Source: Candidatus Magasanikiibacteriota bacterium (lineage in GTDB: Bacteria > Patescibacteriota > Patescibacteriia > Magasanikbacterales > UBA922). Taken from it: a stretch of 64,000 nucleotides of DNA. The notes under the pieces are model-generated. The model saw nothing but the letters and a program-made list of their open reading frames with translations. It did not search any database and was not told the origin of the DNA. Of this stretch, positions 2,906-64,000 are shown piece after piece. The stretch is from assembly GCA_003510435.1 (NCBI GenBank), contig DOMK01000010.1:41487-105486 (forward strand), read 5' to 3'. Numbering within the stretch: position 1 is the stretch's first letter; every line of letters begins with the position of its first letter. The position numbers and the translations under genes were made by a program.

Positions 2906-4648
2906 ATGTCGGATTTGCCTTCAATCAGTAGTTTGCTTAAACCAAAAAAAGATGAAGAAATGGATGGACAAAATGTTCATCCTAGTTTACATATATCTTC
3001 ATCAGAAGTGGAAGAAAAATTTTCTAAGAAAATGACTCAAGTTGGTCTTAAACAAAAAGAAGAAGAAGCCCAAAGATTGGCTCAGTCTTTAGGTTATCCG
3101 CATATTGATTTGGCCAAGTTTCCTGTGAGTCACGAAGCCTTGCGTCAAGTGCCAAAAGAGGTGGCCGATGAATTGGGTGTAGTGTGTTTTTTTGCTACGT
3201 CAGATGAAGTCCGTCTTGGGGCTCTGGACCCCTCTATGTCAGAGGTACAGGAATTATTACATGAAGTTGAAGAAGATAATCATAGTAATGGGGCAATTTA
3301 TGTGATTTCAGAAAATAGTTTGGATAGTGTTTTAAAATTATATGCCAATTTGCCCGATGTAAAACCCATAAATAAAGATATAGAAGTCAAAGCCGAAGAT
3401 TTGGAAGCCGTACAATCTAATGTAAATGATTTTGCTTCTTTACAAGAGGCTTTAAATAAAAAATCAGCTAGTGATTTATTTATTTTGCTTTTAGGCGCGG
3501 CTCTAAAACTAGAAGCATCAGATCTTCATATTGAAGCTGAGGCAGACAACATTGCTGCTCGGTTACGTTTGGATGGAATGTTGCATGATGCCGCTAATTT
3601 GCCGAGAGAAGATTACAAAAAATTAATCAATCGGATAAAATTAGTTTCTGGTTTAAAGATTAATATAGTTGATAAACCACAAGATGGTCGGTTTACAATT
3701 AATTTGCCCGAAGGTGATGTAGACGTGCGTGTTTCTACCATGCCCACAGTTTATGGTGAAAGTGTTGTCATGCGTTTATTAAGGCAATCTTTATCAGGTT
3801 TGGATTTGGATAAACTAGGTTTGTCTGATGAAGACCGTGAAAAGTTGAAAATTCAAATTGTTCGTCCGACTGGGATGATTATAACCACTGGTCCGACTGG
3901 TTCTGGTAAGACAACAACCATGTATGCAATTTTGAAAATTTTAAATAAACCAGATGTAAAAATAATTACTTTGGAAGATCCAGTAGAATATAAAATGGAA
4001 GGGGTAAATCAAAGCCAAGTGGATGAAAAGAAAGGCTATACTTTTGCCAAGGGCTTAAAATCAATTTTGCGCCAGGATCCAGATATTGCCATGGTGGGAG
4101 AAATTCGTGATTTGGATACAGCTAGTACAGCTGTCCAAGGCGCTCTTACTGGCCATTTGATTTTATCCACTGTTCATACCAACAGTGCAGCTGGTTCGGT
4201 TTCTCGGTTTTTATCTTTTGGTGTAGAAACATTTTATTTAGCCCATGCACTCAATTGTGTAATTGGTCAGAGATTGGTGCGTAAAATTTGTCAGTCTTGT
4301 AAAAAAGTACATGAATTGACTGATAAAGAAAATCAAAGAGTAAAAGATATTATTGCCAATATGCCAGAAGACAAAAAGAAGATTGCGGAGAGTAAATCTT
4401 TTAATTTTTTTGAAAAAGTTGGTTGTGAAAAATGTAATGGTATTGGGTATAAGGGGCAGATAGGTATCTATGAAATTTTGCTTGTGACTCAAGATATAAA
4501 AGACAAAATTTTAGCGCGTAATGTTGCCGAGTATGAAATAGAAAAGACAGCTATCAGCCAGGGTATGAGTACTATGGTTCAGGATGGAGTTTTAAAAGCC
4601 TTGGATGGAATGACTTCTTTGGAAGAAATTTTTAGAGTGATTGAATAA
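2906..4648 (+). CDS. pilB: type IV pilus/type II secretion assembly ATPase (PilB/GspE family)
   Basis: Walker A GPTGSGKTT; T2SSE N-terminal domain; C-terminal CxxC..CxxC zinc motif; 580 aa. Confidence 0.85.
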   Translation: MSDLPSISSLLKPKKDEEMDGQNVHPSLHISSSEVEEKFSKKMTQVGLKQKEEEAQRLAQSLGYPHIDLAKFPVSHEALRQVPKEVADELGVVCFFATSDEVRLGALDPSMSEVQELLHEVEEDNHSNGAIYVISENSLDSVLKLYANLPDVKPINKDIEVKAEDLEAVQSNVNDFASLQEALNKKSASDLFILLLGAALKLEASDLHIEAEADNIAARLRLDGMLHDAANLPREDYKKLINRIKLVSGLKINIVDKPQDGRFTINLPEGDVDVRVSTMPTVYGESVVMRLLRQSLSGLDLDKLGLSDEDREKLKIQIVRPTGMIITTGPTGSGKTTTMYAILKILNKPDVKIITLEDPVEYKMEGVNQSQVDEKKGYTFAKGLKSILRQDPDIAMVGEIRDLDTASTAVQGALTGHLILSTVHTNSAAGSVSRFLSFGVETFYLAHALNCVIGQRLVRKICQSCKKVHELTDKENQRVKDIIANMPEDKKKIAESKSFNFFEKVGCEKCNGIGYKGQIGIYEILLVTQDIKDKILARNVAEYEIEKTAISQGMSTMVQDGVLKALDGMTSLEEIFRVIE

Positions 4649-4684
4649 AATAATTAATTTTTTAAATATTTATTTTTTTATAAT

Positions 4685-5821
4685 ATGACACCAATGAGAA
4701 AAGAAACAAATCTTGGTAATAATCAACCGGTTCGGCTTTATAAATTTATTGCTCTGACTTTTTTGTTGATTACAATTGCTCTGTTTTGTTTAATTGTCTT
4801 TATGTCTTCCAAAGAAGCTGTAATTACAATCACAACCAAGTCGGATCCAATTGATGCTAACAAGTATGTGGTGGTTGGTCCGAGGGGAGAATGGTCTGGG
4901 GTTGTAACTTCTACAATCGTAATGATGGAAAAAGATTTTAATCCAACTGGTAATCGAGAAGAACCAGCCGTGGCGACTGGAGTGGTGACTTTGTTAAATG
5001 AATCAAATGAAAATCAACCGTTGGTTGCTACCACCAGACTTTTGACTCCAGAAGGGATTTTATTTCGCTTAAAAGACAGAGTATTGGTACCAGCTGGTGG
5101 TACAGTGGAGGCCAATGTTTATGCTGACCAACCTGGAGCTGGTGGAAATATTGGTCCAGTGGAAAAATTTACTATCCCTGGGCTACGCGAAGATACTCAA
5201 AAAGTAATTTATGCTAAGAGTGTGTCGCCAATGTCTGGCGGGGTAAAGGTAATTGGAGTTTTGAGTGAGGTTGATGTAAAAAAATCTGAGGAAGTAATGC
5301 TTGCAACTTTGGAAGAACAAGGAAAAGCATTTTTATCAAAATTAAATATTAGTACTAATACAGTTTATAAAGTTATTGAGAGTAAATTTGAAAACAGTGC
5401 CACAGTCGGTACCGAAGTAGCAGGTTTTAAATTGAAGGGGCAAGCAACTGTTTTGGCAGTATTTTTTGATAATGCTAACGTGGAGACAGAAGCCACCACT
5501 TTACTCAGTAAACGTCTGGTGGATGAAGCAGAAAATTTATCTGAAGAAGGGGCTTCCCATTCAATTGTGTTGGATAGTTATGATCTGGCCAAAGGTACAG
5601 CGGTTTTACAGATTTTTTCCAATGGCAAGGTGAAATTAGATCCAGGTAGTAAACAATTAGATAAAATGGTTTTTTATGGTAAAACAAAAGATGAAGTCAG
5701 ACGCTATTTATTATCTTTAGATCATGTTCAGAGTGTGGATATCAGTTTCAAACCAGCGTGGATGAGGACTGTGCCCCATGTGGCTGACCATGTACAGGTA
5801 ATTGTGAAAGAGGTGGAGTAA
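4685..5821 (+). CDS. hypothetical membrane-anchored protein
   Basis: Single N-terminal TM helix, then a soluble domain; downstream of pilB, so possibly pilus-associated; no motif recognised. Confidence 0.45.
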   Translation: MTPMRKETNLGNNQPVRLYKFIALTFLLITIALFCLIVFMSSKEAVITITTKSDPIDANKYVVVGPRGEWSGVVTSTIVMMEKDFNPTGNREEPAVATGVVTLLNESNENQPLVATTRLLTPEGILFRLKDRVLVPAGGTVEANVYADQPGAGGNIGPVEKFTIPGLREDTQKVIYAKSVSPMSGGVKVIGVLSEVDVKKSEEVMLATLEEQGKAFLSKLNISTNTVYKVIESKFENSATVGTEVAGFKLKGQATVLAVFFDNANVETEATTLLSKRLVDEAENLSEEGASHSIVLDSYDLAKGTAVLQIFSNGKVKLDPGSKQLDKMVFYGKTKDEVRRYLLSLDHVQSVDISFKPAWMRTVPHVADHVQVIVKEVE

Positions 5822-6172: not shown

Positions 6173-6291
6173 ACACTGATTTCACTGATTTTGTGAGCCT
6201 GCCTGTGGGCAGGGATTTCACAGATTATAATAATCAGTGAAATCAATTTATAAATCAGTGCCTGCCTGCGCAGGCAGGTAATCAATGTTAT
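6173..6291. repeat. MITE-like repeat family A (TIR AACATTGATTACACTGATT), two units with GCCTGCC hairpins; ends at the GNAT start codon
   Basis: CACTGATTTCACTGATT .. AATCAGTGAAATCAAT .. AATCAATGTTAT-ATG; copies at 905-941, 13416-13504, 24317-24384, 33034-33085, 39037-39152. Confidence 0.7.
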
Positions 6292-12089: not shown

Positions 12090-13412
12090 ATGCAATATAA
12101 GTATCACATAACAACTTATGGGTGTCAAATGAATAAGAATGATTCAGAACGGATAGAGGTGGTTTTGAATAAAATGGGTTTGCAGAGTACAGGTGATGTG
12201 GAGTCAGCTGATGTTGTTATCCTTAATACTTGTAGCGTTCGTGATTCAGCTGAAGCGAGAATTTTTGGCCAAGGGGCCAACTTTGCCAAGCTGAAACAAA
12301 AGAAGCCAAATTTAATTGTCGCGGTCACTGGTTGTATGCCTGGCAGAGACAAAACCAAGGAATTAAAAAAGCGTATACCGTGGGTAGATTTGTATTTTGC
12401 GAATGAAGAAATGATTCATTTACCCAAGTGGTTAGCAGAATTAAATCCAGATTTTCGTGTGATGGAAGATTTGGAAACTGATTATCTCAATATCCATCCT
12501 AATTATCATAGTAAATTTCAAGCCTTTGTTAGTATCCAGACAGGATGTAATCATTTTTGTACTTATTGTGTCGTACCCTTTGCCCGTGGTACTGAAGGTA
12601 ATCGATCATTAAAAAGTATTTTGGCTGAAATAGATGATTTGGATAATAAAGGTTATAAAGAAATAACTTTGTTGGGACAAATTGTGAATCATTATATTGC
12701 ACCCGATCCAGAATTTTTTTCTAAAGATAATATTTATAAGAAAAATGATTTTGCTAAGTTGCTGTGGGAAATAAACAAAATGAAAAGTATTGAACGCGTG
12801 CATTGGACTGCTCCGCATCCGATTTATATGGATGAAGAAATGATTGATGCTCTAACTTTACCAAAGCAGGTGAATTTTATTCATTTGCCAGTGCAATCTG
12901 GTAATGACGAAATTCTAAATAAAATGAATCGTCGGCATGATAGACAATTTTATCTGGATATAATTAAAAAGATTAGAGCCAAGCGTCCAGACATGGCAAT
13001 TGGTACAGATATTATTGTTGGTTTTTGTGGGGAAACAGAAGAACAATTTCAAGATACAGTTAGTCTGTTTAAAATTTGTGATTTTGATATTTCTTATCAT
13101 GCTAAATATTCCACTCGGTCAGGCACAGTCGCTGATAAAATGTTTAAAGATGATGTGTCAAAAACAGAAAAGAAAAGACGTTGGCAGATATTACAAGATT
13201 TAATGGAAGAAATTACTTATGCCAAAAATCAAAAATATGTTGGTCAAAAAGTCTCAGTCTTGGTAGAACGTTGCAATGATAGTTGGTGTGAGGGTAATTC
13301 TAATGAAATGAAATTGACTAGATTTAAAGGTAATGAATCAATGATCGGAACGATTCAGACACCAGAAATTTATAAAGCTGGTACCTGGCTTTTGTGGGGA
13401 CGTGTGGTATAA
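12090..13412 (+). CDS. miaB: tRNA methylthiotransferase (MiaB/RimO family radical SAM)
   Basis: N-terminal MTTase cysteines; CNHFCTYC radical-SAM motif; TRAM-like C-terminus. Confidence 0.8.
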   Translation: MQYKYHITTYGCQMNKNDSERIEVVLNKMGLQSTGDVESADVVILNTCSVRDSAEARIFGQGANFAKLKQKKPNLIVAVTGCMPGRDKTKELKKRIPWVDLYFANEEMIHLPKWLAELNPDFRVMEDLETDYLNIHPNYHSKFQAFVSIQTGCNHFCTYCVVPFARGTEGNRSLKSILAEIDDLDNKGYKEITLLGQIVNHYIAPDPEFFSKDNIYKKNDFAKLLWEINKMKSIERVHWTAPHPIYMDEEMIDALTLPKQVNFIHLPVQSGNDEILNKMNRRHDRQFYLDIIKKIRAKRPDMAIGTDIIVGFCGETEEQFQDTVSLFKICDFDISYHAKYSTRSGTVADKMFKDDVSKTEKKRRWQILQDLMEEITYAKNQKYVGQKVSVLVERCNDSWCEGNSNEMKLTRFKGNESMIGTIQTPEIYKAGTWLLWGRVV

Positions 13413-13415
13413 TAG

Positions 13416-13504
13416 ACATTGATTCCATTGATTATTTACTGATTTCGCTGAGTATATCAATTACAATCTGTGTAATCTTTAGTAATCAGTGAAATCAATG
13501 TTAT
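13416..13504. repeat. family A MITE-like element abutting the miaA start
   Basis: GACATTGATTCCATTGATT ... AATCAGTGAAATCAATGTTAT inverted termini; miaB stop TAA lies inside the upstream TGTGGTATAAT -10. Confidence 0.7.
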
Positions 13505-14446
13505 ATGAGAGAAGAAACAAAAAAATTACAAAAATTAATTGTGGTAGTTGGTCCAACTGCTAGTGGCAAGACTAACTGGGCTTTGCGTTTGGCCAAGAAA
13601 TTTAATGGCGATATTATTTCCGCTGATTCAAGGCAAATCTATAAAAAAATGGATATTGGCACAGCCAAAGAGCCTGGTGAATGGCGAAGAAATGGTTTGC
13701 GCAAAACTTACTATATCGAAGATATTCCCCATCATCTAGTTGATTTTCTGGATCCAGGCAAAGCTTTTACAGTGGCAGAATTTAGAGACAAGGCAGTAAA
13801 GTATGTAAAAATGGCGCATGAAGATGGTAAAATGCCGTTGATGGTAGGTGGAACAGGTTTGTATGTTCATTCTTTGGTAGAAAATTTGCAAATTCCTCGC
13901 GTACCGCCAAATAAAAAATTACGTGATAGTTTAGAAGAAAAAAATAATGAAGAATTGATGACTTGGATTACTAGTCTTGACCCAAAGACTGCCGAAACAG
14001 TTGATCCTAATAATAAACGTAGATTAATCCGAGCGCTTGAAGTGTGTATTCTTAGTGGGGTGCCTTTTTCTGAACAACAAATTAAAGGTGATCCATTGTT
14101 TGATATTTTAGAAATTGGGATTGAAGTGGAAAGAGAAACACTTTATGAAAGAATTGATAATCGTGTCCAGAAAATGTTTGATCTTGGTTTGGTAAAAGAA
14201 GTAGAAATTTTATTAAAACAAAAATATTCATGGGAATTACCTTCCATGAGCGGAATTGGTTATCGTCAGTTTAAAGAATATTTTGAAAAGAAAATTTCTT
14301 TGGACGAAGTGAAAGAAAATCTTAAACACGATACCAGAAGATATGCCAAACGACAATTGACTTGGTTTAGGCGAGATGAAAAAATAAAGTGGTGCAAGGA
14401 ATATGAAGAAGCAGAAAAATTGGTAGAAGATTTTTTAAAAAAATAG
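13505..14446 (+). CDS. miaA: tRNA dimethylallyltransferase
   Basis: VVVGPTASGKT P-loop; DSRQIYKKMDIGTAKP motif. Confidence 0.9.
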   Translation: MREETKKLQKLIVVVGPTASGKTNWALRLAKKFNGDIISADSRQIYKKMDIGTAKEPGEWRRNGLRKTYYIEDIPHHLVDFLDPGKAFTVAEFRDKAVKYVKMAHEDGKMPLMVGGTGLYVHSLVENLQIPRVPPNKKLRDSLEEKNNEELMTWITSLDPKTAETVDPNNKRRLIRALEVCILSGVPFSEQQIKGDPLFDILEIGIEVERETLYERIDNRVQKMFDLGLVKEVEILLKQKYSWELPSMSGIGYRQFKEYFEKKISLDEVKENLKHDTRRYAKRQLTWFRRDEKIKWCKEYEEAEKLVEDFLKK

Positions 14447-17719: not shown

Positions 17720-18628
17720 TTATAAATGAGCAGATCCTCTAATTTCATCTAAATTTTTGATTCCTTCTTCTTTCATAATCACTTCCATTTCATCAGTAAT
17801 TTTTTTGAAAGCGTCAGCACCACGGAAATAGACAGCTGAACCAACACCGAGTAGGGTAGCACCGGCCATAATCATCGCGAGAGCATCTTCGCCAGTCGTG
17901 ATTCCTCCTGTGCCGATAATCGGAATTTTAACTGACTTGTAAATATCATAAACGCATTTAAGGGCAATGGGAAATAAAGCTGGACCAGAGACACCGCCTT
18001 GTTTATTATGAAGAATTGGCCGGCGCGCACGGACATCAATCATCATACCACTAACAGTGTTTACAGCCGTAATAGCATCGGCTCCGCTAGCTTCGGCTGC
18101 CTTGGCAATGGTATCAATATTCCAAGCATTGGGTGAAAGTTTTATAGAAATTGGTACGGTAGATTTCTCTTTTACCGCTTTGGTAATTTTTTCTACCGCT
18201 GAAATGGAATAAGCAAAGGGATCGCCGAATTCTTTACTAACATTGGGACAAGAAATATCAATTTCCAAAAAATCAATTGGCGCTTCACAAATCCGCTCGG
18301 CCATTTCGCCGAATTCTTCTGGTGTACCAGCAAAAATGCTCCCTAAAAGAGGAACATCAGATAATTCTTTAAATTTCTTTAATTCTTCAATGGCTTTATC
18401 AATTCCAGGATTAGATAGTCCGACAGCATTGATAAAAAAATGTTCATAGCCATTCATAGTTGGATTGGGGTGGCCAGTACGCGGTTCTTTGGAAATTGAT
18501 TTGACAGTCACGCCACCACAGCCATTTTTTATAGCATTATTAAGACTGGCACCAGTGACACCGAGAATGCCAGAGGCGACGACAATGGGGTTGGTGAATG
18601 ATTTGCCTAAAAAATTAGTTGTTAACAT
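17720..18628 (-). CDS. pyrD: dihydroorotate dehydrogenase catalytic subunit (class 1B)
   Basis: TIM-barrel DHOD motifs; adjacent to pyrK. Confidence 0.85.
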   Translation of the reverse strand: MLTTNFLGKSFTNPIVVASGILGVTGASLNNAIKNGCGGVTVKSISKEPRTGHPNPTMNGYEHFFINAVGLSNPGIDKAIEELKKFKELSDVPLLGSIFAGTPEEFGEMAERICEAPIDFLEIDISCPNVSKEFGDPFAYSISAVEKITKAVKEKSTVPISIKLSPNAWNIDTIAKAAEASGADAITAVNTVSGMMIDVRARRPILHNKQGGVSGPALFPIALKCVYDIYKSVKIPIIGTGGITTGEDALAMIMAGATLLGVGSAVYFRGADAFKKITDEMEVIMKEEGIKNLDEIRGSAHL

Positions 18629-19730: not shown

Positions 19731-20615
19731 TTAATTTGTCACTACCATTGTTGTTTGTCTTTGTTTAATTTCAGATATTATCATGGCTATAAAAATTAGC
19801 AGGCCACCAATCAAAGTGTGTGAGGTTATTTGTTCATTTAAATATAGATAAGCTACTAAAACTGCAAATAGTGGTTCAAAAGAAAAAATAATAGCGGTTT
19901 TGAGCTCGGTAATATAGCGTTGCATATAGGCTTGAGTAGTATACATATAAGCACTGGCAAAAATTGCACAAAATAAAATAGCTTTCCAAACATTCCAATC
20001 TCCAGAAATTGTTATTCTGTAGTTTGTTATTAGCCCTACTATACCGGTAATTATTCCTACAGTAAATAATTGTGTTATGACAAATAAAGAGGCATTGATG
20101 TTTTTAACTAATTTAGTTATCAAAATTAAATGGGTTGCTAAAGCAAAAGTTGCTAATAATACCCAGACATCACCAATGTTTATGGAAAATTTATTTTTTA
20201 AAGTTAATAAAGCCAAACCTCCTAATGCTAATACTATGGCTATAATCTGGTTTACTTTTGGTAATTTTTTATTGATTACAGAAATAATAATTGGAACTAA
20301 AATTACTACTAAGCCAGTAATAAAACCAGCGTTAGAAGCAGTAGTATATTTTATTCCAGTAGTCTGCAATATAAATCCAGCAGAGAGGATTGTGCCAAGT
20401 AAAATTCCTTTCCACAAAATTTCTTTTGTATATAATTTAAATTTATTTGCAAAGATGATAGCCAACAGAATTGAAGCAATAATAAATCTGATTGAGAGAA
20501 AAGAATAAACGTCAACAATACCCACCGCTTGTTTGGTAAATGAAAAAGTGGCACCCCAAAATAACACGCCCAAGAGTATCATCCAAGTTGCTAGTTTTGA
20601 CTTTTCTATCGTCAT
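19731..20615 (-). CDS. EamA/DMT family transporter
   Basis: ~10 TM helices in two EamA-like repeats; start at MTIEKS gives an ATGA overlap with pyrC. Confidence 0.6.
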   Translation of the reverse strand: MTIEKSKLATWMILLGVLFWGATFSFTKQAVGIVDVYSFLSIRFIIASILLAIIFANKFKLYTKEILWKGILLGTILSAGFILQTTGIKYTTASNAGFITGLVVILVPIIISVINKKLPKVNQIIAIVLALGGLALLTLKNKFSINIGDVWVLLATFALATHLILITKLVKNINASLFVITQLFTVGIITGIVGLITNYRITISGDWNVWKAILFCAIFASAYMYTTQAYMQRYITELKTAIIFSFEPLFAVLVAYLYLNEQITSHTLIGGLLIFIAMIISEIKQRQTTMVVTN

Positions 20616-21796
20616 AAAATAATTACTCTTTGATTTAAAATAGTGGCGATGGGCCAGCCGCGGAGTGATAATCCAACAAATGGACTCCAACCGCATTTAG
20701 TTTTTAAATTTTCATTGGTTACTTCTTTTTCTAGATCCAGATCAATTATAACCAAGTCGTTTGTCTCAGGAATGTTAAAGATTTTTTGGATGTTGAAATG
20801 CGTTAATTCAGTAATTTTTTCTAAGGTAATTTTACCGTTTTTAAACTCATTTAGCAAGAGGGGTAAAGTAGTTTCTAATCCTGGTACGCCTGATGGGGAA
20901 TTGGGATATGGCTTAGCTTTTTCTTCTAGGGTATGTGGGGCATGGTCTGTTCCAATAGTATCAATTGTACCGTCTAAAATGGCTTGCCAGAGGGCTTTTT
21001 GATCGTTTTTGGTACGAAGGGGCGGATTCATCTGCCCCAGGGTCCCTAGGTGATTATAATCATCTTCTGATAGAAATAAATGGTGAGGGGTGACTTCAGC
21101 ATAGATCTTAATACTCTCTAATTTGGCTTGTTTAATCAATTCAATTTCTTCTTTAGTACTGACATGACAGATATAGAGTTTGGTGTTGTATTTTTGAGCA
21201 AGTTTGATGGCTTGAGAAACGGCTGTAATAGCAGCATCTCGTGAGCGTATTTTCGAATGATCTTTTACATTGTTACATTGTCCCATTGTTACATTGTTGT
21301 TTTTAATGACAGCTTCGCTCTCTGCATGTACTGCCACAATCAAATTTAACTCTGCACAGGTTTTAAAAATATTTTCTTGATCTTCAATTTTATCAACTAA
21401 TAAATCACCAGTACTGGCACCCATGAAAAGTTTTACACCAATAATTTCGTTTTTACATTTGGCAAATTCAGTATAATTATTTGGCGTTGCTCCAAGATAT
21501 AAATAATAATTCAAAGGAATATTTATTTCGTCCAATTGTTTATCAATTATTTTTTTCTTGTGCTCAAGTGCTAAGGTGCTTATAGTGCTTGGTGAGTTAT
21601 TAGGCATGTCAAATACTGTAGTGTAACCACCTGCCATGGCAGCTTGCGCACCAGTCTGCCAATTTTCTTTGTGTTCAGATCCTGGAGTACGAAAGTGAAC
21701 GTGAGGATCAATTAAGGCTGGTAATGCTAAGAGATTGCCTTTGATTTCGGGTAAGTCTAATTCAAGAGTCTGATTGTTCCAGGTTTTGATTAACAT
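20612..21796 (-). CDS. pyrC: dihydroorotase
   Basis: DPHVHFR metal-binding motif, amidohydrolase fold. Confidence 0.8.
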   Translation of the reverse strand: MLIKTWNNQTLELDLPEIKGNLLALPALIDPHVHFRTPGSEHKENWQTGAQAAMAGGYTTVFDMPNNSPSTISTLALEHKKKIIDKQLDEINIPLNYYLYLGATPNNYTEFAKCKNEIIGVKLFMGASTGDLLVDKIEDQENIFKTCAELNLIVAVHAESEAVIKNNNVTMGQCNNVKDHSKIRSRDAAITAVSQAIKLAQKYNTKLYICHVSTKEEIELIKQAKLESIKIYAEVTPHHLFLSEDDYNHLGTLGQMNPPLRTKNDQKALWQAILDGTIDTIGTDHAPHTLEEKAKPYPNSPSGVPGLETTLPLLLNEFKNGKITLEKITELTHFNIQKIFNIPETNDLVIIDLDLEKEVTNENLKTKCGWSPFVGLSLRGWPIATILNQRVIIL

Positions 21797-24316: not shown

Positions 24317-24515
24317 ATAACATTGATTACACTGATTTAATACTTGCCTGAGGGCAAGGATTTCACAGATTGTGATTGAATAAATTTTTTTAATATAATT
24401 CTGTTTTAATCCGTTTGTATCTGTTTAATCTGCTGTTTCTAATTCGTTTGGTTGTAATTGTTTACAGCAGATTGAACAGATTATAACAAATTATAATGGA
24501 GCAAAATAAATTAAT

Positions 24516-40183: not shown

Positions 40184-40966
40184 TCAAGTAATTGCAGTGG
40201 ATAAAACAGGGTCATATAATTTTGCTTGTCTCCATAATAATTCAAAATGTTCTAAATATCCTTTGGCAATGGCTTTATTTTGTATTTGAATGATGGTTAC
40301 ATCATTACTACCGGTGTATATCTCAATAGTTACCATTTCTGGAGTAATACGAGTGTAAGTAGGAGAGGATAGCCCCACTGTCATGGTTTTTAAAATATTG
40401 CCTTTTTCTTTAGCAAATTTATTTTTAAATTCTTCTGAATAATCAGCCGGTGAAATTAAATATTTAGATACCCGATTATCTTCTAAATACTTTACGTAGT
40501 TTTTATAAAGATTACCAATTACTCGATAAAAATCTATATCTTTGGCACCGCCAATAATACGCATAATGCCATCAGTTTTGGAAGCTGAACTAACCACATC
40601 TTTTAAATTATCAAAAAATCCTTTTTGTCCGTAAAAAGTTTTTACTTCAATTTTATCTATCGCTTCAATTTGTAATTTGACTAAATTTGGCAAAATTTTT
40701 CTAATTTGAGCCTCTTTATCTTCCAAAGTTTTTAGTAAAATTGAAGGTGAAGCTGCTTGAAAATATTTGCGATTGTTTTTGATTACATAAGAAACTAGAT
40801 TTTTATCTTCTAGCCTTTCTAGAGCTTCATAAACCAGCTGGCGATGAAGTTTAGTATTGGTAACAATTGGGCCCACATTTGTTGAGCCTAATTTAAGAAG
40901 TTCCAAGTATGTTTTAGCTTCGTTGGTATTTAATCCTATTTTCTCGAGGGTAGAAAGTATTTCCAT
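40184..40966 (-). CDS. TrmB-family transcriptional regulator
   Basis: N-terminal wHTH LSTLEKIGLNTNEAKTYLELLKLG. Confidence 0.6.
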   Translation of the reverse strand: MEILSTLEKIGLNTNEAKTYLELLKLGSTNVGPIVTNTKLHRQLVYEALERLEDKNLVSYVIKNNRKYFQAASPSILLKTLEDKEAQIRKILPNLVKLQIEAIDKIEVKTFYGQKGFFDNLKDVVSSASKTDGIMRIIGGAKDIDFYRVIGNLYKNYVKYLEDNRVSKYLISPADYSEEFKNKFAKEKGNILKTMTVGLSSPTYTRITPEMVTIEIYTGSNDVTIIQIQNKAIAKGYLEHFELLWRQAKLYDPVLSTAIT

Positions 40967-41042: not shown

Positions 41043-41071
41043 TTGACAATATTATAAATTTATGATATAGT
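41043..41071 (+). promoter_or_regulatory. sigma70-like promoter of the higher-GC methyltransferase gene
   Basis: TTGACA-N17-TATAGT; overlapped by a nested palindrome. Confidence 0.55.
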
Positions 41072-41154
41072 CATTTATTACACTAAGGATGAACAAGTTC
41101 ATCTAAAGTGTATAGGTGTTGCTGTTTACAATTCACAAAGAGAAGGAGAAGAAG

Positions 41155-41955
41155 ATGCTAGAGTCTACTCAGAGAACCTATTCGTGTATGAGGAGAGAAA
41201 TTATTCGCAACCCTAGTTTGATTTATTGGGCCTTGCAAATGATTTTGCAAGAACTCGAGTTGTCCTGGGAAGACAGAGTATTTGTCCATCAAGAATTTTT
41301 GAATATCCTGCAGCGTGAGGTGCTGGAGGAAAAGGCGGCGCGAGAAGTCTGGGACATTGTTTGTCCACACCAGGCAGTTTTGAAGGAAAAACTGCAGAAG
41401 AGAGCCTTGCTGATTTATTCCCAAGTAGAGTACTATCTCAGGAAGGGAAAAATTCTTGACTTTGGTTGTGGCGATGGACGCGTTGGTCAGCTAGTGGCTG
41501 ACAACACGGCTCAACAAGTCTGCTTGTATGATGTGGCAGACTACAGGAGAAGTTCTGTGCGTGATGCAAACCTGCCTTTCTTCTCAGATTGGCAAGAGGT
41601 TGGAGCCCAGCAGTTTGACACTGTCATGTCACTGTTGGTTTTCCACCATTCTGAAGACCCAGATCAGGAAGTATCCAGGTTGAGTAAGGTTTGTCAGAGA
41701 TTGGTGGTAATTGAATCGGTCATTGACGATTCAATTGTGCCCTGGTCAGCCCAAGCAACCATTGATTGGATTTATAATCGTGGTTTTCATCCTGGGGCCA
41801 TGGTTCCGGTGCCAGGGCAGTTCCGTACGTCACAAGATTGGTTAGAGACTTTCTGTCGTCATGGTTTTTCCCTAGTCGATAGTCAGGACCTTGGCATTGA
41901 TTTGCCAATTGTTCCTGAACATCATTGGCTGTTTGTTCTGGACCGTGAGGTTTAG
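41155..41955 (+). CDS. class I SAM-dependent methyltransferase (higher-GC gene)
   Basis: ILDFGCGDGRVG SAM-binding motif; GAAGGAG SD; about 47% GC versus about 30% in the flanks. Confidence 0.6.
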   Translation: MLESTQRTYSCMRREIIRNPSLIYWALQMILQELELSWEDRVFVHQEFLNILQREVLEEKAAREVWDIVCPHQAVLKEKLQKRALLIYSQVEYYLRKGKILDFGCGDGRVGQLVADNTAQQVCLYDVADYRRSSVRDANLPFFSDWQEVGAQQFDTVMSLLVFHHSEDPDQEVSRLSKVCQRLVVIESVIDDSIVPWSAQATIDWIYNRGFHPGAMVPVPGQFRTSQDWLETFCRHGFSLVDSQDLGIDLPIVPEHHWLFVLDREV

Positions 41956-42058
41956 AACAAGTCCTTTCATTTGGTTGGACAGTGGTTACAGCCACCATTG
42001 CCCAACCTCCATTCTAGTATTTTTAATTAAATTAAAAACAGTAGTGAGGAAAATTAAA

Positions 42059-44541: not shown

Positions 44542-44570
44542 TTGACAAAAGCATTTTTTTGTGGTATAAT
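44542..44570 (+). promoter_or_regulatory. sigma70 promoter of GC-island gene b
   Basis: TTGACA-N17-TATAAT with TGN extended -10. Confidence 0.6.
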
Positions 44571-44636
44571 ACTCGGTCCTGAAAATGGGCAATTGTTACA
44601 GAATGGAACGAACCTTACAACTCATTGGAGGGCGCT

Positions 44637-46187
44637 ATGAACTGGTTGAAGAAAGAGATCAACCGTATGGTGAGCGAAGGCGGCTGGAGCATTGGCGCTC
44701 TGGTAGTCGCTCTGGTGGCGTTCGCTGCCACCGTATTGTGCACCTCGCTCGTGGCAGGTGTGCAGATCGCTCGGGCCGTAGCCTATCTTGGCGGGCCCTT
44801 GCTCGTTCTCGCCTTTATGGCGGTGTACGTTGCCTTTAGGAAACTGCCTTGGAAAAAGGCTGTTCTCCTGCTGGTGTTGTACATCGCCGGACCTGTCGGC
44901 ACTCTGCTCGTGGCAGGTGCTGAGTTGGCAGAGATTGTGTCTCTGCTGACCCTGGGCACGGTCGTCGTCGTGGGGATCTTCCTCATGAGGAAACAACATC
45001 CTGTGATCGCCAAGGTCGTACTGTTTGGAACGGCGTGGGCGGTTGTAATGTGGAACGTCCCGCCGGAATATGAGGGCTGGGCTTGGTGGGTCACTCAGAT
45101 CCTCCTGGTCATCGTGGCTCACGGGTTGGCTCGGGCTTTCCTGTTGCCCTGGCTGGTCAAGTGGATTGAGATGGGTATCACCTGGTTCTTCGGAACCGAC
45201 AAGATGCTCAAGACTCGTCCGTATCTTCGGACGGTCCTCGATCTGATCCTACTCGCGATTGCTATCCTGTTTCTCAGCTGGGTCGTAGGGGGACGATTCC
45301 CCCAGGTCGCGACATGGATTGCTCGGGCTGCTCTAATTACCCTGGCCTATCCCATTAGGCTGGCATATAAGTGGGAGCCGGCGATCACTCGGCTCGTGGC
45401 TGGGTTTGCTGCCATCCTGGTCGCTACGTCGTATCTCGTGGACGACTCGTGGGCCACGAACCCAGTTGAGTCTTTGGTCATGGCCTTTGCGCTTTTCCTG
45501 TTCTGGTTGGAAGTGGTAAAACCGCGCCTCAAGGTGTGGGAGTACTACTCCCGGAACAACTGGGAGAAGCCTCTCTTGGTGGCTGGGATTATCATGGTGG
45601 TCGGCTGTGGAGTCAACTACATGGTAATTCATCTCTGGAACAACATGTGGTTCACCCAGGAGAATGGGTGGAGAATCCCAGAGTTGTTCTGGAAGGCCCC
45701 CGAGGTCGTAGAGATGATAGGGGAAAAGAAAGTGATGATCGTCCCGATGGGTTGGCTTAGAGCCACGCGGGTCGTCCCTATGCTCATCCTTGGCCTGGCT
45801 GTGGGTCTGGCCAACCACGGCAAACTTCCAAAGTACAAGAAAGAAGAGCGCACTGGCCTCGCGTTCTTCATCGGTCTTGGTTTGGGGGTGGCGTTCTTGC
45901 TACTCTTGAAGACCGAGATTCAACTCTCCGTTCTCCTTGGAGCGGGGTTGTTCATAGGTTTCGGCTTAGCTCTCATCGTGGGGCCGTGGCGGTGGCTCGT
46001 CTGCGTGGCCTGTTCTTGGGCCATGACAGTGGGGATGCTTTCGTCCCCGGCCTATGCCGTTCGCGCTTTGCTGTGGGCTCTGCTAACGGCTGGCATGTCG
46101 GCCTGGGCTGCCGCTTTTGTTCGGCTGATCTGGGAGAAATCCTGGGAAATGGCCGGCAAAACCAAGGCTAAGAAAAAAGGCCACTAA
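44637..46187 (+). CDS. polytopic membrane protein (~14 TM) in GC-rich island
   Basis: High GC3 codon usage; GGAGGG SD 4 nt before ATG; Trp/Leu-rich TM helices; no family recognised. Confidence 0.55.
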   Translation: MNWLKKEINRMVSEGGWSIGALVVALVAFAATVLCTSLVAGVQIARAVAYLGGPLLVLAFMAVYVAFRKLPWKKAVLLLVLYIAGPVGTLLVAGAELAEIVSLLTLGTVVVVGIFLMRKQHPVIAKVVLFGTAWAVVMWNVPPEYEGWAWWVTQILLVIVAHGLARAFLLPWLVKWIEMGITWFFGTDKMLKTRPYLRTVLDLILLAIAILFLSWVVGGRFPQVATWIARAALITLAYPIRLAYKWEPAITRLVAGFAAILVATSYLVDDSWATNPVESLVMAFALFLFWLEVVKPRLKVWEYYSRNNWEKPLLVAGIIMVVGCGVNYMVIHLWNNMWFTQENGWRIPELFWKAPEVVEMIGEKKVMIVPMGWLRATRVVPMLILGLAVGLANHGKLPKYKKEERTGLAFFIGLGLGVAFLLLLKTEIQLSVLLGAGLFIGFGLALIVGPWRWLVCVACSWAMTVGMLSSPAYAVRALLWALLTAGMSAWAAAFVRLIWEKSWEMAGKTKAKKKGH

Positions 46188-46444
46188 CCCGCTAGCCAGT
46201 CGGTAAACACTGGTCGGGTCTATGATTGGACCCTTTCGTCTCCAACCGGGAGGCGAGAAAAGAGCGCAAGCTCAGATTGATTTCGTTCCAGACAGTCAAA
46301 TGTCTGATGGACGATGAAGAAATGGCAGGCCGTTGGCTCGAAACCCAACGTACCTGCCCTCCGTTTACTTACTAAATATTATTTTGGTGGGTGAACAGAG
46401 AATATAACACGATACAAAATACACATAGCAAAATACAAGAACTT

Positions 46445-46476
46445 CACCTCTACCTGTGCAAGGTGGAGGTTTTTTA
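46445..46476 (+). terminator. rho-independent terminator after island b
   Basis: CACCTCTACC..GGTGGAGGT hairpin followed by TTTTTT. Confidence 0.6.
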
Positions 46477-46583
46477 TTTATCTTTCTGTAAGCGCGCCCT
46501 AGTGATTGTGGTGATTGATTAATTATTTTTTAATTTTGTGGTATAATAATATAAAGTATTTTTGATTAAATTATTTTGGATTT

Positions 46584-51379: not shown

Positions 51380-51516
51380 GGAATCCCTTGTGTTAAAATA
51401 TAATTGTTGGTTTGAACATAAATTTGGACGGAAATTTAACAAAAATAAAACGAAAATTAAATTATTATAGTAAATAGAGATAAGATTGAGATAATTGGAG
51501 ATAAAAAACAACAAAT

Positions 51517-51548
51517 AAAAATCTGCCGAAGAGGCAGATTTTTATTTT
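51517..51548. terminator. bidirectional terminator
   Basis: ATCTGCC-gaaga-GGCAGAT hairpin flanked by A-run and T-run. Confidence 0.65.
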
Positions 51549-51695
51549 CTGAATTATTATAATAATTTTATAATCATTCGGAATTTGGGCACTGAAACGC
51601 ACCCAGTGGCTTCCGGCCTTGGCCACTGGTTAAGGGTGGTTACAGCACGAACTAGAAGAAAGAGCGCGGGGATGGAACGGGGAGGAAGTAGCCAC

Positions 51696-52079
51696 CTAGC
51701 CGAGCAGGAGCTGCGTGAGCGCCTCGATCATGGGGATAGGCTTCTCCATGGAGTAGCCCTTCTCCCGATCCCACGAGTGGAACCGATCCTCGACGGAGTG
51801 GTCCGGGCCGTTCGAGCACGGCACGAACATCCCCATCCCCACATCCTCGACCTTGAAGCCGAAGGACACGAGGAAGTCCTGGACGAGACGTCCCGTCTCG
51901 TAGTCGCCCCGGAGGAAGGGGCAACCACCAGTGATGTAGCCGAACAGCCACGCGCGACTGTCGGCCTCGCCTACGACGTCGGTCGGGGTCTCGACCAGGC
52001 TCTTGGCCCGGCCGGTCGACGTCGGCCGAATGGCCAGCGTCCCATTGTTCATGCACACGGTGAAATCGCACGGCCTCAT
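51696..52079 (-). CDS. hypothetical protein (~128 aa) in GC-rich island
   Basis: High GC3 ORF MRPCDFTVCMNNG...; AGGTGA SD 4 nt upstream; consensus promoter; no family recognised. Confidence 0.5.
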   Translation of the reverse strand: MRPCDFTVCMNNGTLAIRPTSTGRAKSLVETPTDVVGEADSRAWLFGYITGGCPFLRGDYETGRLVQDFLVSFGFKVEDVGMGMFVPCSNGPDHSVEDRFHSWDREKGYSMEKPIPMIEALTQLLLG

Positions 52080-52137
52080 CTGATCACCTGATGTGGTTCG
52101 ACGTCCAGTATGGTCCCCGACCATCTGGAACAATACT

Positions 52138-52165
52138 TTATACCATAAAAAAACCAGCCTGTCAA
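52138..52165 (-). promoter_or_regulatory. sigma70 promoter of GC-island gene c
   Basis: Minus-sense TTGACA-N17-TATAAA with TGG extended -10. Confidence 0.55.
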
Positions 52166-53104: not shown

Positions 53105-54566
53105 TGGCTCTCTGTTTATGTTCTAGAGTCCAGCCATGTTCAACAAAAATTTGGTGCATCCAATCAAAATTATCAGTATATTGGATATAAAAAATTTTGT
53201 CAGCGGTTTTTAAATATTGCTCTAGCCACTTGGTTAGTTCAGGTTTGTCAGTGATTTGTTGATTCCAGTTATAGCGGACAATTCTTTCTTCTAGACTAAA
53301 ATTATCTTCCCGTAAATATATACCAACAATTGGCCGTTGGCCATGATAATATTTTTGTAATGGTAAAACCTCGTTGAATGGTGTAATAATAGTAAAACTA
53401 TTTTTAGTTTCGTTTGTTTCTATATAATTGATTAATTTTGTCCAGGAAAAAATACCAGAATTTGACACGGTGTAAGCCCCAGGAGTAATTAATAATATTA
53501 TAAAGATGATAATGGCATAAAATATTTTTGTGTTTTTAACTGCTCGAGAAACACTATAACCAAGTATAATATACAAAGGAAGAGAAGATATTACATAAAA
53601 TTTGGTGACAAAGACTCCTATGATTGATCCGGAAAAAATAAGTAAAAAAGCCCAAAGCTGTAAAAAAATTAAAAGCCTTTTTTGTTTAAGATCTGTTTCG
53701 TTTTTGGTTTTTAAAATTGTAAAAACAATTGCGCCAATTAAAATTATTCCAAAAGTAGTAAAGACAAAAGGTGTTAAGTCTTCATTCATGAAAATACTTA
53801 CCAATAAGGTGAGAACATTGGCATAGGCCGTAGTGACTGGCCTAAAATACCAAGCACTAAGACTATTTTGGTTTAATTTTGAGAGTAGAGAGGGGACAAA
53901 CCAAATTAACCAGCTGGCACCAATTAAAACATGACCAAAAAACCAATATCTAAATTCTTTTTTTTCTACATTTAATAAAAATAATGATAAAAATTGCGTT
54001 ACAAAGATGGACAGAGCGGTGAGATGAGAATAGATTAGGAGTAAATTTATAAAAAAGTAAATTAACCAAACACTAAGTTTATTTTTTCCATTAAAAAAGA
54101 TTTGATAAAATAAGAAATAAGATAGAAGCGTTAAGAAAATCATTAAACTATAGACCCTAGCTTCACTGTTTATAAAAATGTGCACTCCAGAGAGAGTAAG
54201 AGTCAAACTACTTATAATGGCAGCTTTTTTATTAATTATTTTATAAGTAAAGTAATACAAGAGGACGATTGTGGCAAGACCTAAAATAGTAGACGGTAAT
54301 CTAATTAAAAGTTCATTATTAATTCCCACGATTGATGTCCAACCGCGTAAAAATAAAGTATAGAGTGGTGGATTGGTTTCTAGGGTCCAGTATTTTATGG
54401 CATCAGCCCAGGGTAAATTGGCAAAGTGGACACTAAACATTTCATCAAACCAAAAAGTGTCTCTAAGTAGTAAAAGATGAAGACGAAGAAATGAGGCAAA
54501 AATAAAAATTAGGTATAGAGGTAACCACTCTTTTAAATGAGTAATAATTTTATTCTGCTTCAGCAT
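53025..54566 (-). CDS. GT-C family glycosyltransferase (ArnT/PMT-like)
   Basis: 513 aa, ~12 TM; first-loop FDEMFS DE-type motif. Confidence 0.5.
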
Positions 54567-55605
54567 AATCTGCTTTTCTTAGAGCTTCAATTACATTTTC
54601 CAAATTGCCGTTTAAAATCGTATTGATATTATTCCAACTTTCATGAATGCGGTGGTCAGTAATTCTGTCTTGAGGAAAGTTGTATGTGCGGATTTTTTCA
54701 CTGCGATCAGCCGTACCAATTTGTTTTTTTCTTTTGGCATCAAGTGCGGCGGTTTGTTTGGCTCTTTCAATTTCATAAATTCTGGCTCTAAGAACATTCA
54801 TAGCTTTTTCTCGGTTTTGAATTTGGGATCTTTCATCTTGGGATTGAGCCACTACCCCAGTCGGGATATGAGTAATTCTCACCGCGCTATAAGTAGTGTT
54901 TACACTCTGGCCACCATGTCCGCCAGCACAAAAAGTATCAATTCTAAGATCATTGGCATTGATTTCCAATTCAGTCTCTTCAATTTCTGGTAAGACAGCT
55001 ACACTGGCAGTAGAAGTATGAATGCGACCAGATTTTTCTGTTTCGGGAATTCTCTGTACACGGTGCACGCCCATTTCATATTTCATATCTTTGTACACAT
55101 TTTTTCCGGTAATAGAAAAGATTACTTCTTTGTAGCCACCAATGCCAATTTTATTTTCATCAATTAGCGTGGTTTTCCATTTGTGGGTTTCGGCATACTT
55201 CATATACATGCGCATGAGATCACCAGCAAACAGAGCTGATTCATCACCACCAGCTCCAGCCCGGATTTCCACAATTACATCTTTACCATCGAGTGGGTCG
55301 GTTGGTAATGTTAAAACATTTAATTCGTTTTCTAATTCATTTTTTTTATCGCGCAGTTCTAATAATTCAATTTCTGCTAGTTCTTTGAATTCGCCATCAG
55401 CTTCGTTTGTAATAATAATTTCATTGTCTGTAATATTTTTTTCAATACTTTCTAGAATAATAATTTTTTCAGCCGTGGGTTTGAGATCGTCATATTCCTG
55501 AGCCGCGGCTTTTAATTTATTTTGGTCAGCAATAATTACTGGATTTTGTAGGTCCAATTCTAATTTGGAATATTTATTTTTAATATCTATATATTTTTGA
55601 AGCAT
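54550..55605 (-). CDS. prfA: peptide chain release factor 1
   Basis: GGQ motif ([12 protein letters not shown]), RITHIPTG. Confidence 0.9.
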
Positions 55606-61824: not shown

Positions 61825-61826
61825 AT

Positions 61827-62111
61827 ATGAATAAATTAGACACTTACAAAAAAGAACTAGTCAAAGTTCTAGCTAGTATAAAGGACGAGGCGACCATGAA
61901 TGATTTTTTGGTTGATTTATTGACTGGGGCGGAGATAGAGGAATTACCAAAACGGTTGCAAATTATAAAACAACTAGACAAAGGTGTGTCACAAAGAGAA
62001 GTGGCGAAGAATCTGGGAGTAGGGATTGCGACCGTCACTCGTGGCGCCAAAGAATTAAAAAATAAAAAAGGGGGATTCAGAAAGGTTCTAGATATAATGT
62101 TTGGAAGATAA
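61827..62111 (+). CDS. TrpR/YerC/YecD-family DNA-binding protein
   Basis: LLTGAEIEELPKRLQIIKQLDKGVSQREVAKNLGVGIATVTRG matches the Trp-repressor-like HTH family. Confidence 0.6.
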   Translation: MNKLDTYKKELVKVLASIKDEATMNDFLVDLLTGAEIEELPKRLQIIKQLDKGVSQREVAKNLGVGIATVTRGAKELKNKKGGFRKVLDIMFGR

Positions 62112-62469
62112 CGTTTTTATCATTATAAAAGATAAAAATAATATAAATTGTTTAAAAATTACAAATTAAAAAATCCAAATTACAAATAAATTACAAAAAA
62201 CAAAACAAAAAAATAAAATTGTAATTTGGAATTTGAGTTTTGTTTGTCATTTGGTATTTAGATTTTGGAATTTTAATTCTATGTTATTAAATAAAACAAT
62301 TTTAAAAAATCGTTGGTGGCACTACTCCTGGCGTTGAGTAGTAGTTTTGTTTACCCTGAGTGAACCGAAGGGTTTACCCATTACATACTGCTCGACCTGG
62401 GCAGTTTTTTTTACTCCCCGCCTGTGCAGACAGGTTTACTCCTTACTCCTTATTCTTTATTCCTTATTT

Positions 62470-63855
62470 ATGATTTTACCAAAAATAAATATTCCCCAAA
62501 AACCAATATATATAAATGTAGCGACTGACATTGATTTTTTGGAATTATTTAGAAAAATTGAAAAAGAGTATGACAATTGTTTTATGTTTGAATCGCTTGG
62601 GGAGAAGAGTCGATCTTCACGTTATTCTGTAATTGGTTTTGCACCTGAGCATATTATACGAGCAAAAAATAATGATTTGTACTTTGATGAACAAAAATTT
62701 ACAGTGAAAAATCCTTATGAATCTTTGCGTGAAATAGTACCCCAAGACATTATTAGCCGGCGTTATGCTGGTGGGCTGGTTGGTTATCTTAGTTATGAAG
62801 CAGTAAATTATTTTGAACCAAATCTTAATGTAAAAATTCATGACAAGTTTGACCAGTTTATGTTTGGAGTTTATACCGATGGTTTGGTTTTTGATAACGT
62901 GACAAATCAATTGTTTTATTTTTATTATTTTACCAATCGTTTGCCCGAGATAGAAATACTGATGAATAAAGAGATAAAAGATAAAGAACTTTTTGTTCAA
63001 TTTAGATCAGATTCTTTGTCAGAAACAGAACATTGCGCCCAGGTGGAAATAGTAAAAGAATATATTCGCGGGGGTTATACTTTTCAATGTGAAGTAGGTT
63101 TTAAAAGTGAATATGAGATAAGCGGAGATGCTTTTAAGATTTATGATAAACTTAGAAAAGTAAATCCGTCGCCTTATATGTATTATGTGAAATTTGGCGA
63201 CCCCGTAAAAAAGGACGGGGCAGGCATAAAATTGATTGGTGCTAGTCCAGAATTATTATTTAGTTTGACTCAGGGTGAAGTTGAGACACACCCTTTGGCT
63301 GGTACTATTAAACGGGGAAAAACTGATTTGGAAGACAGACAATTGGCTAGAAAATTATTAAATGATCCAAAAGAAATGGCTGAACACAATATGCTAGTGG
63401 ATATGCATCGTAATGATATTGGTAAAGTATCACAATTTGGCACAGTCAAAATTCGGTCTCTGATGGATATAAAAAAATTTAGCCATGTTCAGCATATTGG
63501 TAGTGAGATTAGTGGCATTATTGATTCACAACAAGATATGTTTTCTGGATTGGCCAGTTTGTTACCAGGCGGAGTATTGTGTGGTGCGCCAAAAATAGAA
63601 ACTATAAAAATTATTGATAGTATGGAAAAGCAGGCGCGCGGGCCATATGGTGGTGGGGTTGGTTTGTTTGGGTTTAATGGTGATGCGACTTTTGCTATCC
63701 CGATTCGCACTTTATTTATTGCGGACAAGTATGCCTATACCCAGACTTGTAGTGGGATAGTGTATGATTCTATTCCTTATAGAGAATATGATGAAATCCA
63801 GCGTAAACTGGCAGCGATGAAACAGACCTTAGGACAGTTTTGTTATTACATGTAA
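62470..63855 (+). CDS. anthranilate/aminodeoxychorismate synthase component I (TrpE/PabB family)
   Basis: Chorismate-binding motifs: LAGTIKRGKT, GAPK, GPYGG; track start 62347 runs through repeats, so the internal ATG at 62470 is preferred. Confidence 0.75.
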   Translation: MILPKINIPQKPIYINVATDIDFLELFRKIEKEYDNCFMFESLGEKSRSSRYSVIGFAPEHIIRAKNNDLYFDEQKFTVKNPYESLREIVPQDIISRRYAGGLVGYLSYEAVNYFEPNLNVKIHDKFDQFMFGVYTDGLVFDNVTNQLFYFYYFTNRLPEIEILMNKEIKDKELFVQFRSDSLSETEHCAQVEIVKEYIRGGYTFQCEVGFKSEYEISGDAFKIYDKLRKVNPSPYMYYVKFGDPVKKDGAGIKLIGASPELLFSLTQGEVETHPLAGTIKRGKTDLEDRQLARKLLNDPKEMAEHNMLVDMHRNDIGKVSQFGTVKIRSLMDIKKFSHVQHIGSEISGIIDSQQDMFSGLASLLPGGVLCGAPKIETIKIIDSMEKQARGPYGGGVGLFGFNGDATFAIPIRTLFIADKYAYTQTCSGIVYDSIPYREYDEIQRKLAAMKQTLGQFCYYM

Positions 63856-63859
63856 ATAT

Positions 63860-64000
63860 ATGAAAATATTAATAATAGACAATTTTGATTCTTTTACTTA
63901 CAACCTTTATCAATATGTGGGTGAATTGTTGCAGGCTAGAAAGATTAATTTTCAATTGGATGTAAAAAGAAATAATGAAATAAGTTTGGTTGAAATAAAA
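63860..64000 (+). CDS. glutamine amidotransferase component II (TrpG/PabA), N-terminal part; runs off window
   Basis: MKILIIDNFDSFTYNLYQYVGEL class-I GATase N-terminus, 4 nt after the component-I stop. Confidence 0.6.
   Translation, partial: MKILIIDNFDSFTYNLYQYVGELLQARKINFQLDVKRNNEISLVEIK

Follow-up and report, generated by a model that had tools for sequence, protein, structure and literature searches.

Genes without and genes with Shine-Dalgarno sequences in a groundwater Magasanikbacteria genome: U(-1)AUG core genes and GC-rich accessory islands

Introduction

In the Bacteroidota, of which Flavobacterium johnsoniae is an example, Shine-Dalgarno (SD) sequences are nearly absent, the mRNA leaders are A/U-rich and unstructured, and the few genes that retain an SD are autoregulated genes of the rpsU type; initiation is characterized by A at positions -3, -6 and -11 to -13 and by an anti-SD that is retained yet sequestered by bS21/bS18/bS6. 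The subject of this study is a stretch of 64,000 nucleotides (the window; positions 41,487 to 105,486 of contig DOMK01000010.1, assembly GCA_003510435.1) with a GC content of ~36%, from the genome of a groundwater Candidatus Magasanikbacteria, a lineage of the candidate phyla radiation (CPR, Patescibacteria), and in particular the start signals of its core genes and of four GC-rich islands that lie among them. The window resembles the Bacteroidota in the near-absence of SDs, in the A/U-rich, unstructured leaders and in the presence of an SD-bearing minority. It differs in its dominant signal, which is a U at position -1 (85-92%), in its CPR lineage and in the nature of the minority, which consists of GC-rich accessory orphan genes.

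Three further systems invite comparison. Anti-SD loss has been described in reduced genomes and in part of the Parcubacteria (PMC9297842; PMC7782861), and the genome studied here is likewise a small CPR genome, in which core genes seem able to do without SD pairing. Those studies scored the 16S rRNA motif, whereas here the mRNA signals were scored, and in contrast to the lineages that lost the anti-SD, this genome encodes uL1 and SDs are conserved on a subset of its genes, which argues that the anti-SD has been retained. A U directly 5' of AUG favours initiation and is known to pair with A37 of the initiator tRNA, forming a quadruplet (PMC10018350; earlier chloroplast work cited there). In E. 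coli both the effect and the bias are small (15% T), whereas the bias reported here, known from sequence, is nearly universal across the clade. Finally, the four islands share with islands acquired by horizontal transfer a deviant GC content and a deviant GC content at third codon positions (GC3), variable presence, intergenic insertion and a wealth of orphan genes, but they are single-gene islets of 0.6-2 kb without an integrase, a tRNA target, clear repeats or a detectable donor, and one of them is still GC-rich on either side of a deep split between species. Lineages poor in SDs and islands of deviant composition are known already; the present case is a variant of both.

Native genes of the window do without an SD and each of the four GC-rich genes possesses one. 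This dichotomy is real and is stronger than first stated in the first-pass annotation, which took the GC-rich genes to be of foreign origin. In the explanation toward which we lean, with somewhat better than even confidence, the GC-rich genes are imported, SD-led accessory genes behind host-type promoters, set among core genes that initiate independently of an SD at U(-1)AUG.

Native genes lack Shine-Dalgarno sequences

The regions from -20 to -1 were scanned for duplexes, expressed as pairing energies, with a short anti-SD tail, ACCUCCUUA, and a longer tail, GAUCACCUCCUUA. Both tails are scoring sequences; no rRNA was found in the window, in the 80-95 loci of relatives or in the 10 kb downstream of the window. 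The curated list held 58 native starts, of which one (48..791) lies inside ftsH, so that the true number is 57. The native genes, located between 2906 and 63860, have 35% GC and a GC3 of 0.26-0.30, and the A/U-rich segment at -12 to -1 ahead of their start codons ends with T at -1.

At none of the about 57 native starts was a contiguous, well-spaced SD of the GGAGG type found; there was one possible AGGTGA. With the short tail, only 3 of the 58 listed starts reached -4.5 kcal/mol, a smaller share than the 12% of random native 20-mers that did so. With the long tail, -7 kcal/mol was reached by 4 of the 58, three of which form bulged duplexes in hairpin remnants while the fourth is an AGGTGA within a tandem repeat before the gene 17720-18628. 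The identical naive pipeline, run on 49 kb of E. coli as a positive control, assigned -6 kcal/mol or stronger to 42% of the genes, versus 4% in the window and 6% in random sequence from here. The SD frequency upstream of native starts lies at or below background, the mark of SD-independent initiation. Fourteen more native genes of the same genome, beyond the window, are likewise SD-less. The first-pass annotation had called the native upstream regions devoid of GGAGG-like elements, which holds, and also A/T-only, which was overstated: between -15 and -1 the mean G+C content is 19%, and only 12% of the stretches are free of any G or C.

Four GC-rich islands carry canonical Shine-Dalgarno sequences

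Island 1 (~960-1700, 64% GC) contains on the minus strand the coding sequence 1314..1673 for an orphan protein of 119 residues, with GC contents of 0.64, 0.46 and 0.82 at the first, second and third codon positions. Its SD, GAGGGAG (1680..1686, minus strand), is 6 nt from the ATG at 1673 and is preceded in A/T-rich DNA by a sigma-70-type promoter, TTGACA ... TGaTAAAAA (1723..1752, minus strand), that is kept in the related locus L015. Island 2 (~41200-42000, 46-47% GC) encodes on the plus strand a class I S-adenosylmethionine methyltransferase of 266 residues (41155..41955; 46-47% GC, GC3 0.47), with the promoter TTGACA-17-TATAGT, including TG, at 41043..41071 and the SD GAAGGAG at 41142..41148, 6 nt from the ATG at 41155. 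In island 3 (~44600-46400, 57% GC), also on the plus strand, a perfect promoter, TTGACA-17-TATAAT with TG (44542..44570), and the SD GGAGGG (44627..44632), 4 nt from the ATG at 44637, lead to a coding sequence for 516 residues (44637..46187; 57% GC, GC3 0.71), followed by a GC-rich 3' tail (46188..46470) that ends with an intrinsic terminator (46446-46470). The protein is hydrophobic and Trp-rich and, by inspection alone, looks like a multi-pass membrane protein. Island 4 (~51590-52140, 63% GC) encodes on the minus strand an orphan of 127 residues (51696..52079; GC3 0.89); the promoter, TTGACA-17-TATAAA with TG, is at 52137..52165 (minus strand), and the SD AGGTGA(TC), AGGTGATC, at 52082..52089 (minus strand), is an 8-nt complement of GAUCACCU. 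Its spacing to the ATG at 52079 is 4 nt when counted from AGGTGA, 2 nt from the 8-mer and 7 nt from AGG. The GC-rich 3' tail of this gene (51585..51695, minus strand) abuts a bidirectional terminator at 51513-51547.

These four SD motifs are the ones that had been named at the outset, and all were recovered at their sites, 4-6 nt from the ATG. Complementarity amounts to 4-6 nt or more and the spacing falls within about 4-9 nt in all four islands, as in canonical SDs. Pairing with ACCUCCUUA yields -8.5, -8.8, -9.8 and -3.8 kcal/mol for islands 1 to 4, and pairing with GAUCACCUCCUUA -9.0 to -13.3 kcal/mol. The -20 to -1 scan, which had been suggested as a check, separates islands from native genes with p = 1.3e-4 (Fisher), and the chance that four of four islands would carry an SD given their composition is 1.7e-3. 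The native U(-1) mark is missing from the island genes. In the A/T-rich flank of each island lies a strong promoter of the sigma-70 type whose -10 element is extended, and two of these promoters are the top matches of a 13-kb scan.

In the public gene calls, the long contigs carry antisense open reading frames (ORFs) at 1080-1703 and 51585-52091 of the plus strand (197 and 168 residues). The minus-strand frames of islands 1 and 4 are supported by their GC3 of 0.82 and 0.89 and by their SD-led starts. A GC3 of 0.71-0.89, an open frame of 520 codons and, for island 1, a ratio of nonsynonymous to synonymous substitution rates (dN/dS) of 0.23 indicate that the island genes are real and functional.

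The association could in principle be an artefact of chimeric assembly or contamination, or the SD-like motifs could have arisen by chance in G-rich sequence. Several short contigs do end at island borders, and within the islands ~20% of start-like triplets follow a duplex whose energy is -7 kcal/mol or lower. Yet the gene order of the window and the island junctions recur in independent assemblies from several samples and several pipelines (ENA entries whose contigs are named in MEGAHIT and SPAdes style, as well as JGI and Logan), L015 has island 1 in synteny, and the probability for four of four given above, together with a clade-wide dose-response far above the composition controls, makes an artefact extremely improbable.

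A U at position -1 marks the native starts

The sole strongly conserved position of the native starts is T at -1, which is found in 92% of the ATG-called genes of the window and in 50 of the 58 entries (86%) of the curated list. In the Magasanikbacteria loci, 433 typical genes that start with ATG have T at -1 in 85% of cases and G in 1%; the E. coli control has T in 15%. The enrichment is that expected of quadruplet pairing between U(-1) and A37, through which the codon-anticodon helix of the core genes is probably extended to A37 of the initiator tRNA, and the lineage would then depend heavily on this contact. Between -12 and -2 the native sequence is A/T-rich and G-poor, with A modestly raised at -11, -7 and -5, where the Kozak-like positions of the Bacteroidota type would be -3, -6 and -11 to -13, and the 60-nt initiation regions fold weakly, with a mean of -5.3 kcal/mol.

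Leaderless mRNA was considered as the general mode of native initiation and rejected. Leaders that begin at recognizable promoters measure about 8 to 124 nt, and operon-internal genes show the same start context, so that leaderless initiation is at most a minority mode. A leaderless-like arrangement, with the -10 box about 6-9 nt before the start codon, fits few genes, such as 40184-40966 with 8 nt; the other recognizable promoters yield leaders of 14-124 nt. What looks like a leaderless start at 1795 was called wrongly; alignment with the L015 homologue places the start of this membrane protein at 1909. Starts at 11362, 32473 and 48810 are probably also wrong, in that the longest ORF was called from a TTG or GTG that is followed 6 nt later by a T-preceded ATG. 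The U(-1)AUG rule could serve to refine such calls.

Several recurring elements adjoin native starts. Several unrelated genes (miaA, the L11 gene and others) have a motif of 21 nt, AATCAGTGTAATCAATGTTAT, directly against their ATG. With four matches versus none expected, it is located at 13484-13504 (plus strand), 24317-24337 (minus strand), 39038-39077 (minus strand, two copies) and also at 6271-6291. Directly upstream of 20612-21796, 54550-55605, 29579-30259, 39147-39692 and 31004-31888, all on the minus strand, the recurring elements include repeats of GTGATAYGTGA as well as GC-rich hairpins, short and of the form TTCCTCGC..GCTCGGAAT, whose last base lies a few nucleotides ahead of the ATG.

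The split throughout the clade

Scanning genomes with GyrB yielded 80 loci of Magasanikbacteria and neighbouring Parcubacteria with GC contents of 28-60%. In almost all of them, GC-rich members included, the SD frequency is at background; in L039 (56% GC), 0 of 22 native genes have an SD. GC-richness alone does not yield SDs, since the native genes of GC-rich members lack them. When genes were binned by their GC excess over their own locus and a strong SD was defined as -8 kcal/mol or stronger, the first start of genes with typical GC carried a strong SD in 3-4% of cases, rising to 14% at an excess of +0.05 to +0.10, to 23% at +0.10 to +0.15 and to 42% above +0.15, where the best of three starts gave 65%. 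From bin to bin the share of T(-1) drops, starting at 62-65% (68-71% when only the Magasanikbacteria are counted) and reaching 15-20%. Composition fails to explain the rise in SDs because only about 5% of the 20-mers within the islands of the window reach -8 kcal/mol.

An SD might be evolved or kept for a reason unrelated to origin: GC-rich mRNAs fold at their starts and would need an SD to bind the 30S subunit, in which case the SDs would be uninformative about where the genes came from. Three islands have initiation regions of -10.8 to -11.9 kcal/mol, compared with the native -5.3 kcal/mol, and island interiors amount to -22 to -26 kcal/mol; moreover, SDs are kept between orthologues. The structured initiation regions of the three islands would be a reason for SD retention, but structure alone is insufficient to account for the SDs because in clade members with 49-60% GC the native genes do without one. 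In addition, island 2 has a strong SD despite an unstructured initiation region (-4.6 kcal/mol), and the U(-1) of native genes is missing from the island genes as well. As a full explanation, folding is therefore unlikely, though it deserves more weight than the other rivals.

Among 79 GC-deviant ORFs of the clade set, most had no match in Pfam, PHROGs or NCBIfam and were mutually unrelated, and a common protein family was rejected since only a few orthologous pairs emerged. The slot downstream of gyrB (~12100-13700), which in the window is the slot of island 2, is filled by diverse, unrelated GC-rich ORFs in L017, L021, L030, L032, L034, L039, L045, L052, L065, L076, L077, L085 and L092, and to judge from these sequences looks like an insertion hot spot. 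In more distant Parcubacteria, some A/T-rich genes have conserved strong SDs. Specialists would be surprised by two things: that U(-1) is nearly universal, and that GC excess, possession of an SD and orphan status go together across the clade.

Recurrence throughout the clade is also what one would expect if the GC-rich, SD-led genes were native and formed a class under regulation of its own, the lineage purposely maintaining two modes of initiation; the availability of the anti-SD might, for instance, turn the accessory genes on. Such a class would accommodate the long residence and constraint of the GC-rich island 1, the strong host-type promoter at every island and the conserved SDs on some A/T-rich genes of related Parcubacteria. 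It is distinctly improbable in view of the variation of the cassettes between close relatives and of the island proteins themselves, which are mostly unrelated orphans without a common family.

Relatives, homologues and the question of import

The closest relative found, L016 (GyrB 93% identical in amino acids, ~88% in nucleotides), is without island 3 and without island 2 plus the adjacent TrmB-like gene. The site of island 4, between a DUF3048 gene and prmC (51585-52140; 4030-5030 in L016), is occupied in L016 by an unrelated GC-rich, SD-led gene in the opposite orientation. It encodes 188 residues with a signal-peptide-like N-terminus and is equipped with a promoter of its own, TTGACA-17-TATAGT, and with GCGGAGGAccccGTG. 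This arrangement indicates two independent insertions at one intergenic site. Atypical composition (46-64% GC versus 36%; GC3 0.47-0.89 versus 0.26-0.30) is combined with variable presence in close relatives for islands 2 and 3 and the island 4 site, while island 1 is conserved in L015. The proposal of a foreign origin is strengthened by evidence other than the SD motifs of the islands themselves: by the absences in L016, by the clade-wide rise of SDs and disappearance of U(-1) with GC excess and by the SD-less native genes of GC-rich members.

A number of results weigh against the explanation preferred here. A full HMMER search of 1.84 billion representative proteins returned for island 3 only itself, a word-indexed search returned for island 4 a self match only and for island 1 a single match, an orthologue of the same lineage, and none of the three matched Pfam, NCBIfam, PHROGs or the PDB. 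Phage and plasmid tblastn searches with island 3 and scans of IMG/VR with islands 1 and 4 were empty. The neighbours of the islands include no integrase or transposase, and neither a tRNA target nor a convincing target-site duplication is seen. Island 1 is not a recent acquisition, and if an old transfer had simply been ameliorated, its GC-richness despite saturation of the synonymous substitution rate (dS) would not be expected. Furthermore, the CCUCCU motif, on which use of the SDs by the host would depend, has been found in only 48% of Parcubacteria (PMC9297842).

Two metagenome scans for island homologues also gave no match. Three of the four island proteins (islands 1, 3 and 4) are orphans for which no relatives outside the lineage were found, and the AlphaFold models of islands 1 and 4, with confidence scores (pLDDT) of 35 and 43, are too poor for a fold search. 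The window contains a single tRNA, tRNA-Leu. The only flanking repeat, an exact direct repeat of 15 nt, TTTTGTGGTATAATA, at 44557-44571 and 46534-46548, brackets island 3, and both copies are promoter -10 regions. It was not accepted as a target-site duplication and probably reflects the promoter consensus, given that the window contains four copies of TGTGGTATAAT. Integron cassettes were rejected as well, the islands being scattered single genes with their own promoters and the Pfam lists containing no integrase; no model was used to look for attC sites. The direction and the source of the transfer are inferences.

A 9-nt tandem unit (GCTTACAAR / GCTTGCAAG) forms intergenic arrays, often inverted, with 18 matches versus 0.5 expected. 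The arrays are located at 801-859, 1774-1879, 38460-38543 and 40047-40112 of the window and at 5095-5137 and 9960-9993 of L016. Two of them flank island 1, and those of L016 are adjacent to the island 3 and island 4 sites.

Island 1 is an old resident with a conserved Shine-Dalgarno sequence

The L015 orthologue of island 1, in another species, is 59% identical in amino acids and has the same neighbours, the flanking native protein being 53% identical. With a dN/dS of 0.23 and a dS near 1.5, which is saturated, comparison of the two sequences shows purifying selection at the protein level. Both copies are GC-rich (GC3 0.82 and 0.63). The SD of the L015 gene is TAGGAGG, 5 nt from a GTG, and an A/T-rich promoter is conserved upstream of both. 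SDs are kept at homologous starts in two more GC-rich orthologue pairs, L028/L052 and L026/L044.

On the 3' side of the island 1 gene, a GC-rich stretch of ~350 nt (960..1313, minus strand; 1085-1440 in L015) contains blocks conserved in L015 and predicted hairpins, with compensatory changes such as a 14-bp stem with four double changes. A second ORF was rejected, the conservation being without codon periodicity, and Rfam gave only sub-threshold matches on island 1. From its sequence the stretch may be a structured 3' untranslated region or a separate RNA.

Conservation of the SDs bears on whether they still function. They could be dead relics, the anti-SD having been lost and the island genes being poorly translated or read by an SD-independent route, and both the patchy occurrence of the anti-SD motif in Parcubacteria and the absence of SD use in native genes agree with this. 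But SDs at orthologous starts have survived saturation of dS, and the island 1 protein is under purifying selection. Loss of the anti-SD has been linked to lineages that lack uL1 (PMC9297842), and this genome has uL1. Decay of the SDs into relics is very unlikely on these grounds, a little more so than a native regulatory class. The retention of SDs between orthologues and their conservation on some A/T-rich genes argue that ribosomes of the group can still use SD pairing, and the island genes are probably still read through such pairing.

Two modes of initiation

If the island genes were imported, events would be as follows. Core genes would be initiated without pairing between SD and anti-SD, at a start codon within an A/U-rich leader of weak structure, almost always directly after a U. 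The four GC-rich genes would have been acquired from a GC-rich, SD-using source and placed in intergenic spaces. They would be transcribed from a host-type sigma-70 promoter in the A/T-rich flank, with a leader of 45-80 nt, and translation would begin at a more structured initiation region with the aid of a canonical SD at optimal spacing. The SDs would be donor-type signals kept by selection, since the ribosome of the lineage can presumably still pair with them.

A broader proposal, that Magasanikbacteria and allied Parcubacteria maintain two initiation regimes side by side, with a nearly obligatory U(-1)AUG quadruplet on unstructured, A/U-rich leaders for the core and with SD pairing and structured, GC-rich mRNAs maintained by selection in a fast-turnover set of GC-rich orphans, is speculative and has a small chance of being right. 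The orphans would perhaps stem from a still unknown host or another unsampled partner. If true, the cell would possess a separate handle on the expression of accessory genes.

For gene calling, the data provide a sequence-level rule for the CPR: callers trained on SDs mis-call native starts and chose the wrong strand in two islands. A gene that has an SD and has lost U(-1) is thereby marked as imported, independently of its composition and in a clade in which homology searches fail. The near-universal U(-1) offers a natural test case for quadruplet pairing with the initiator tRNA as a primary signal of start selection. Identification of the donor of the GC-rich orphans could point to unknown episymbiont hosts.

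Tryptophan biosynthesis genes

After a gene for a Trp repressor come the complete operon trpEGDC(F)BA and genes of the shikimate pathway (61827-63855; 3038-15066 in L097), which is much aromatic amino-acid biosynthesis for a CPR member.

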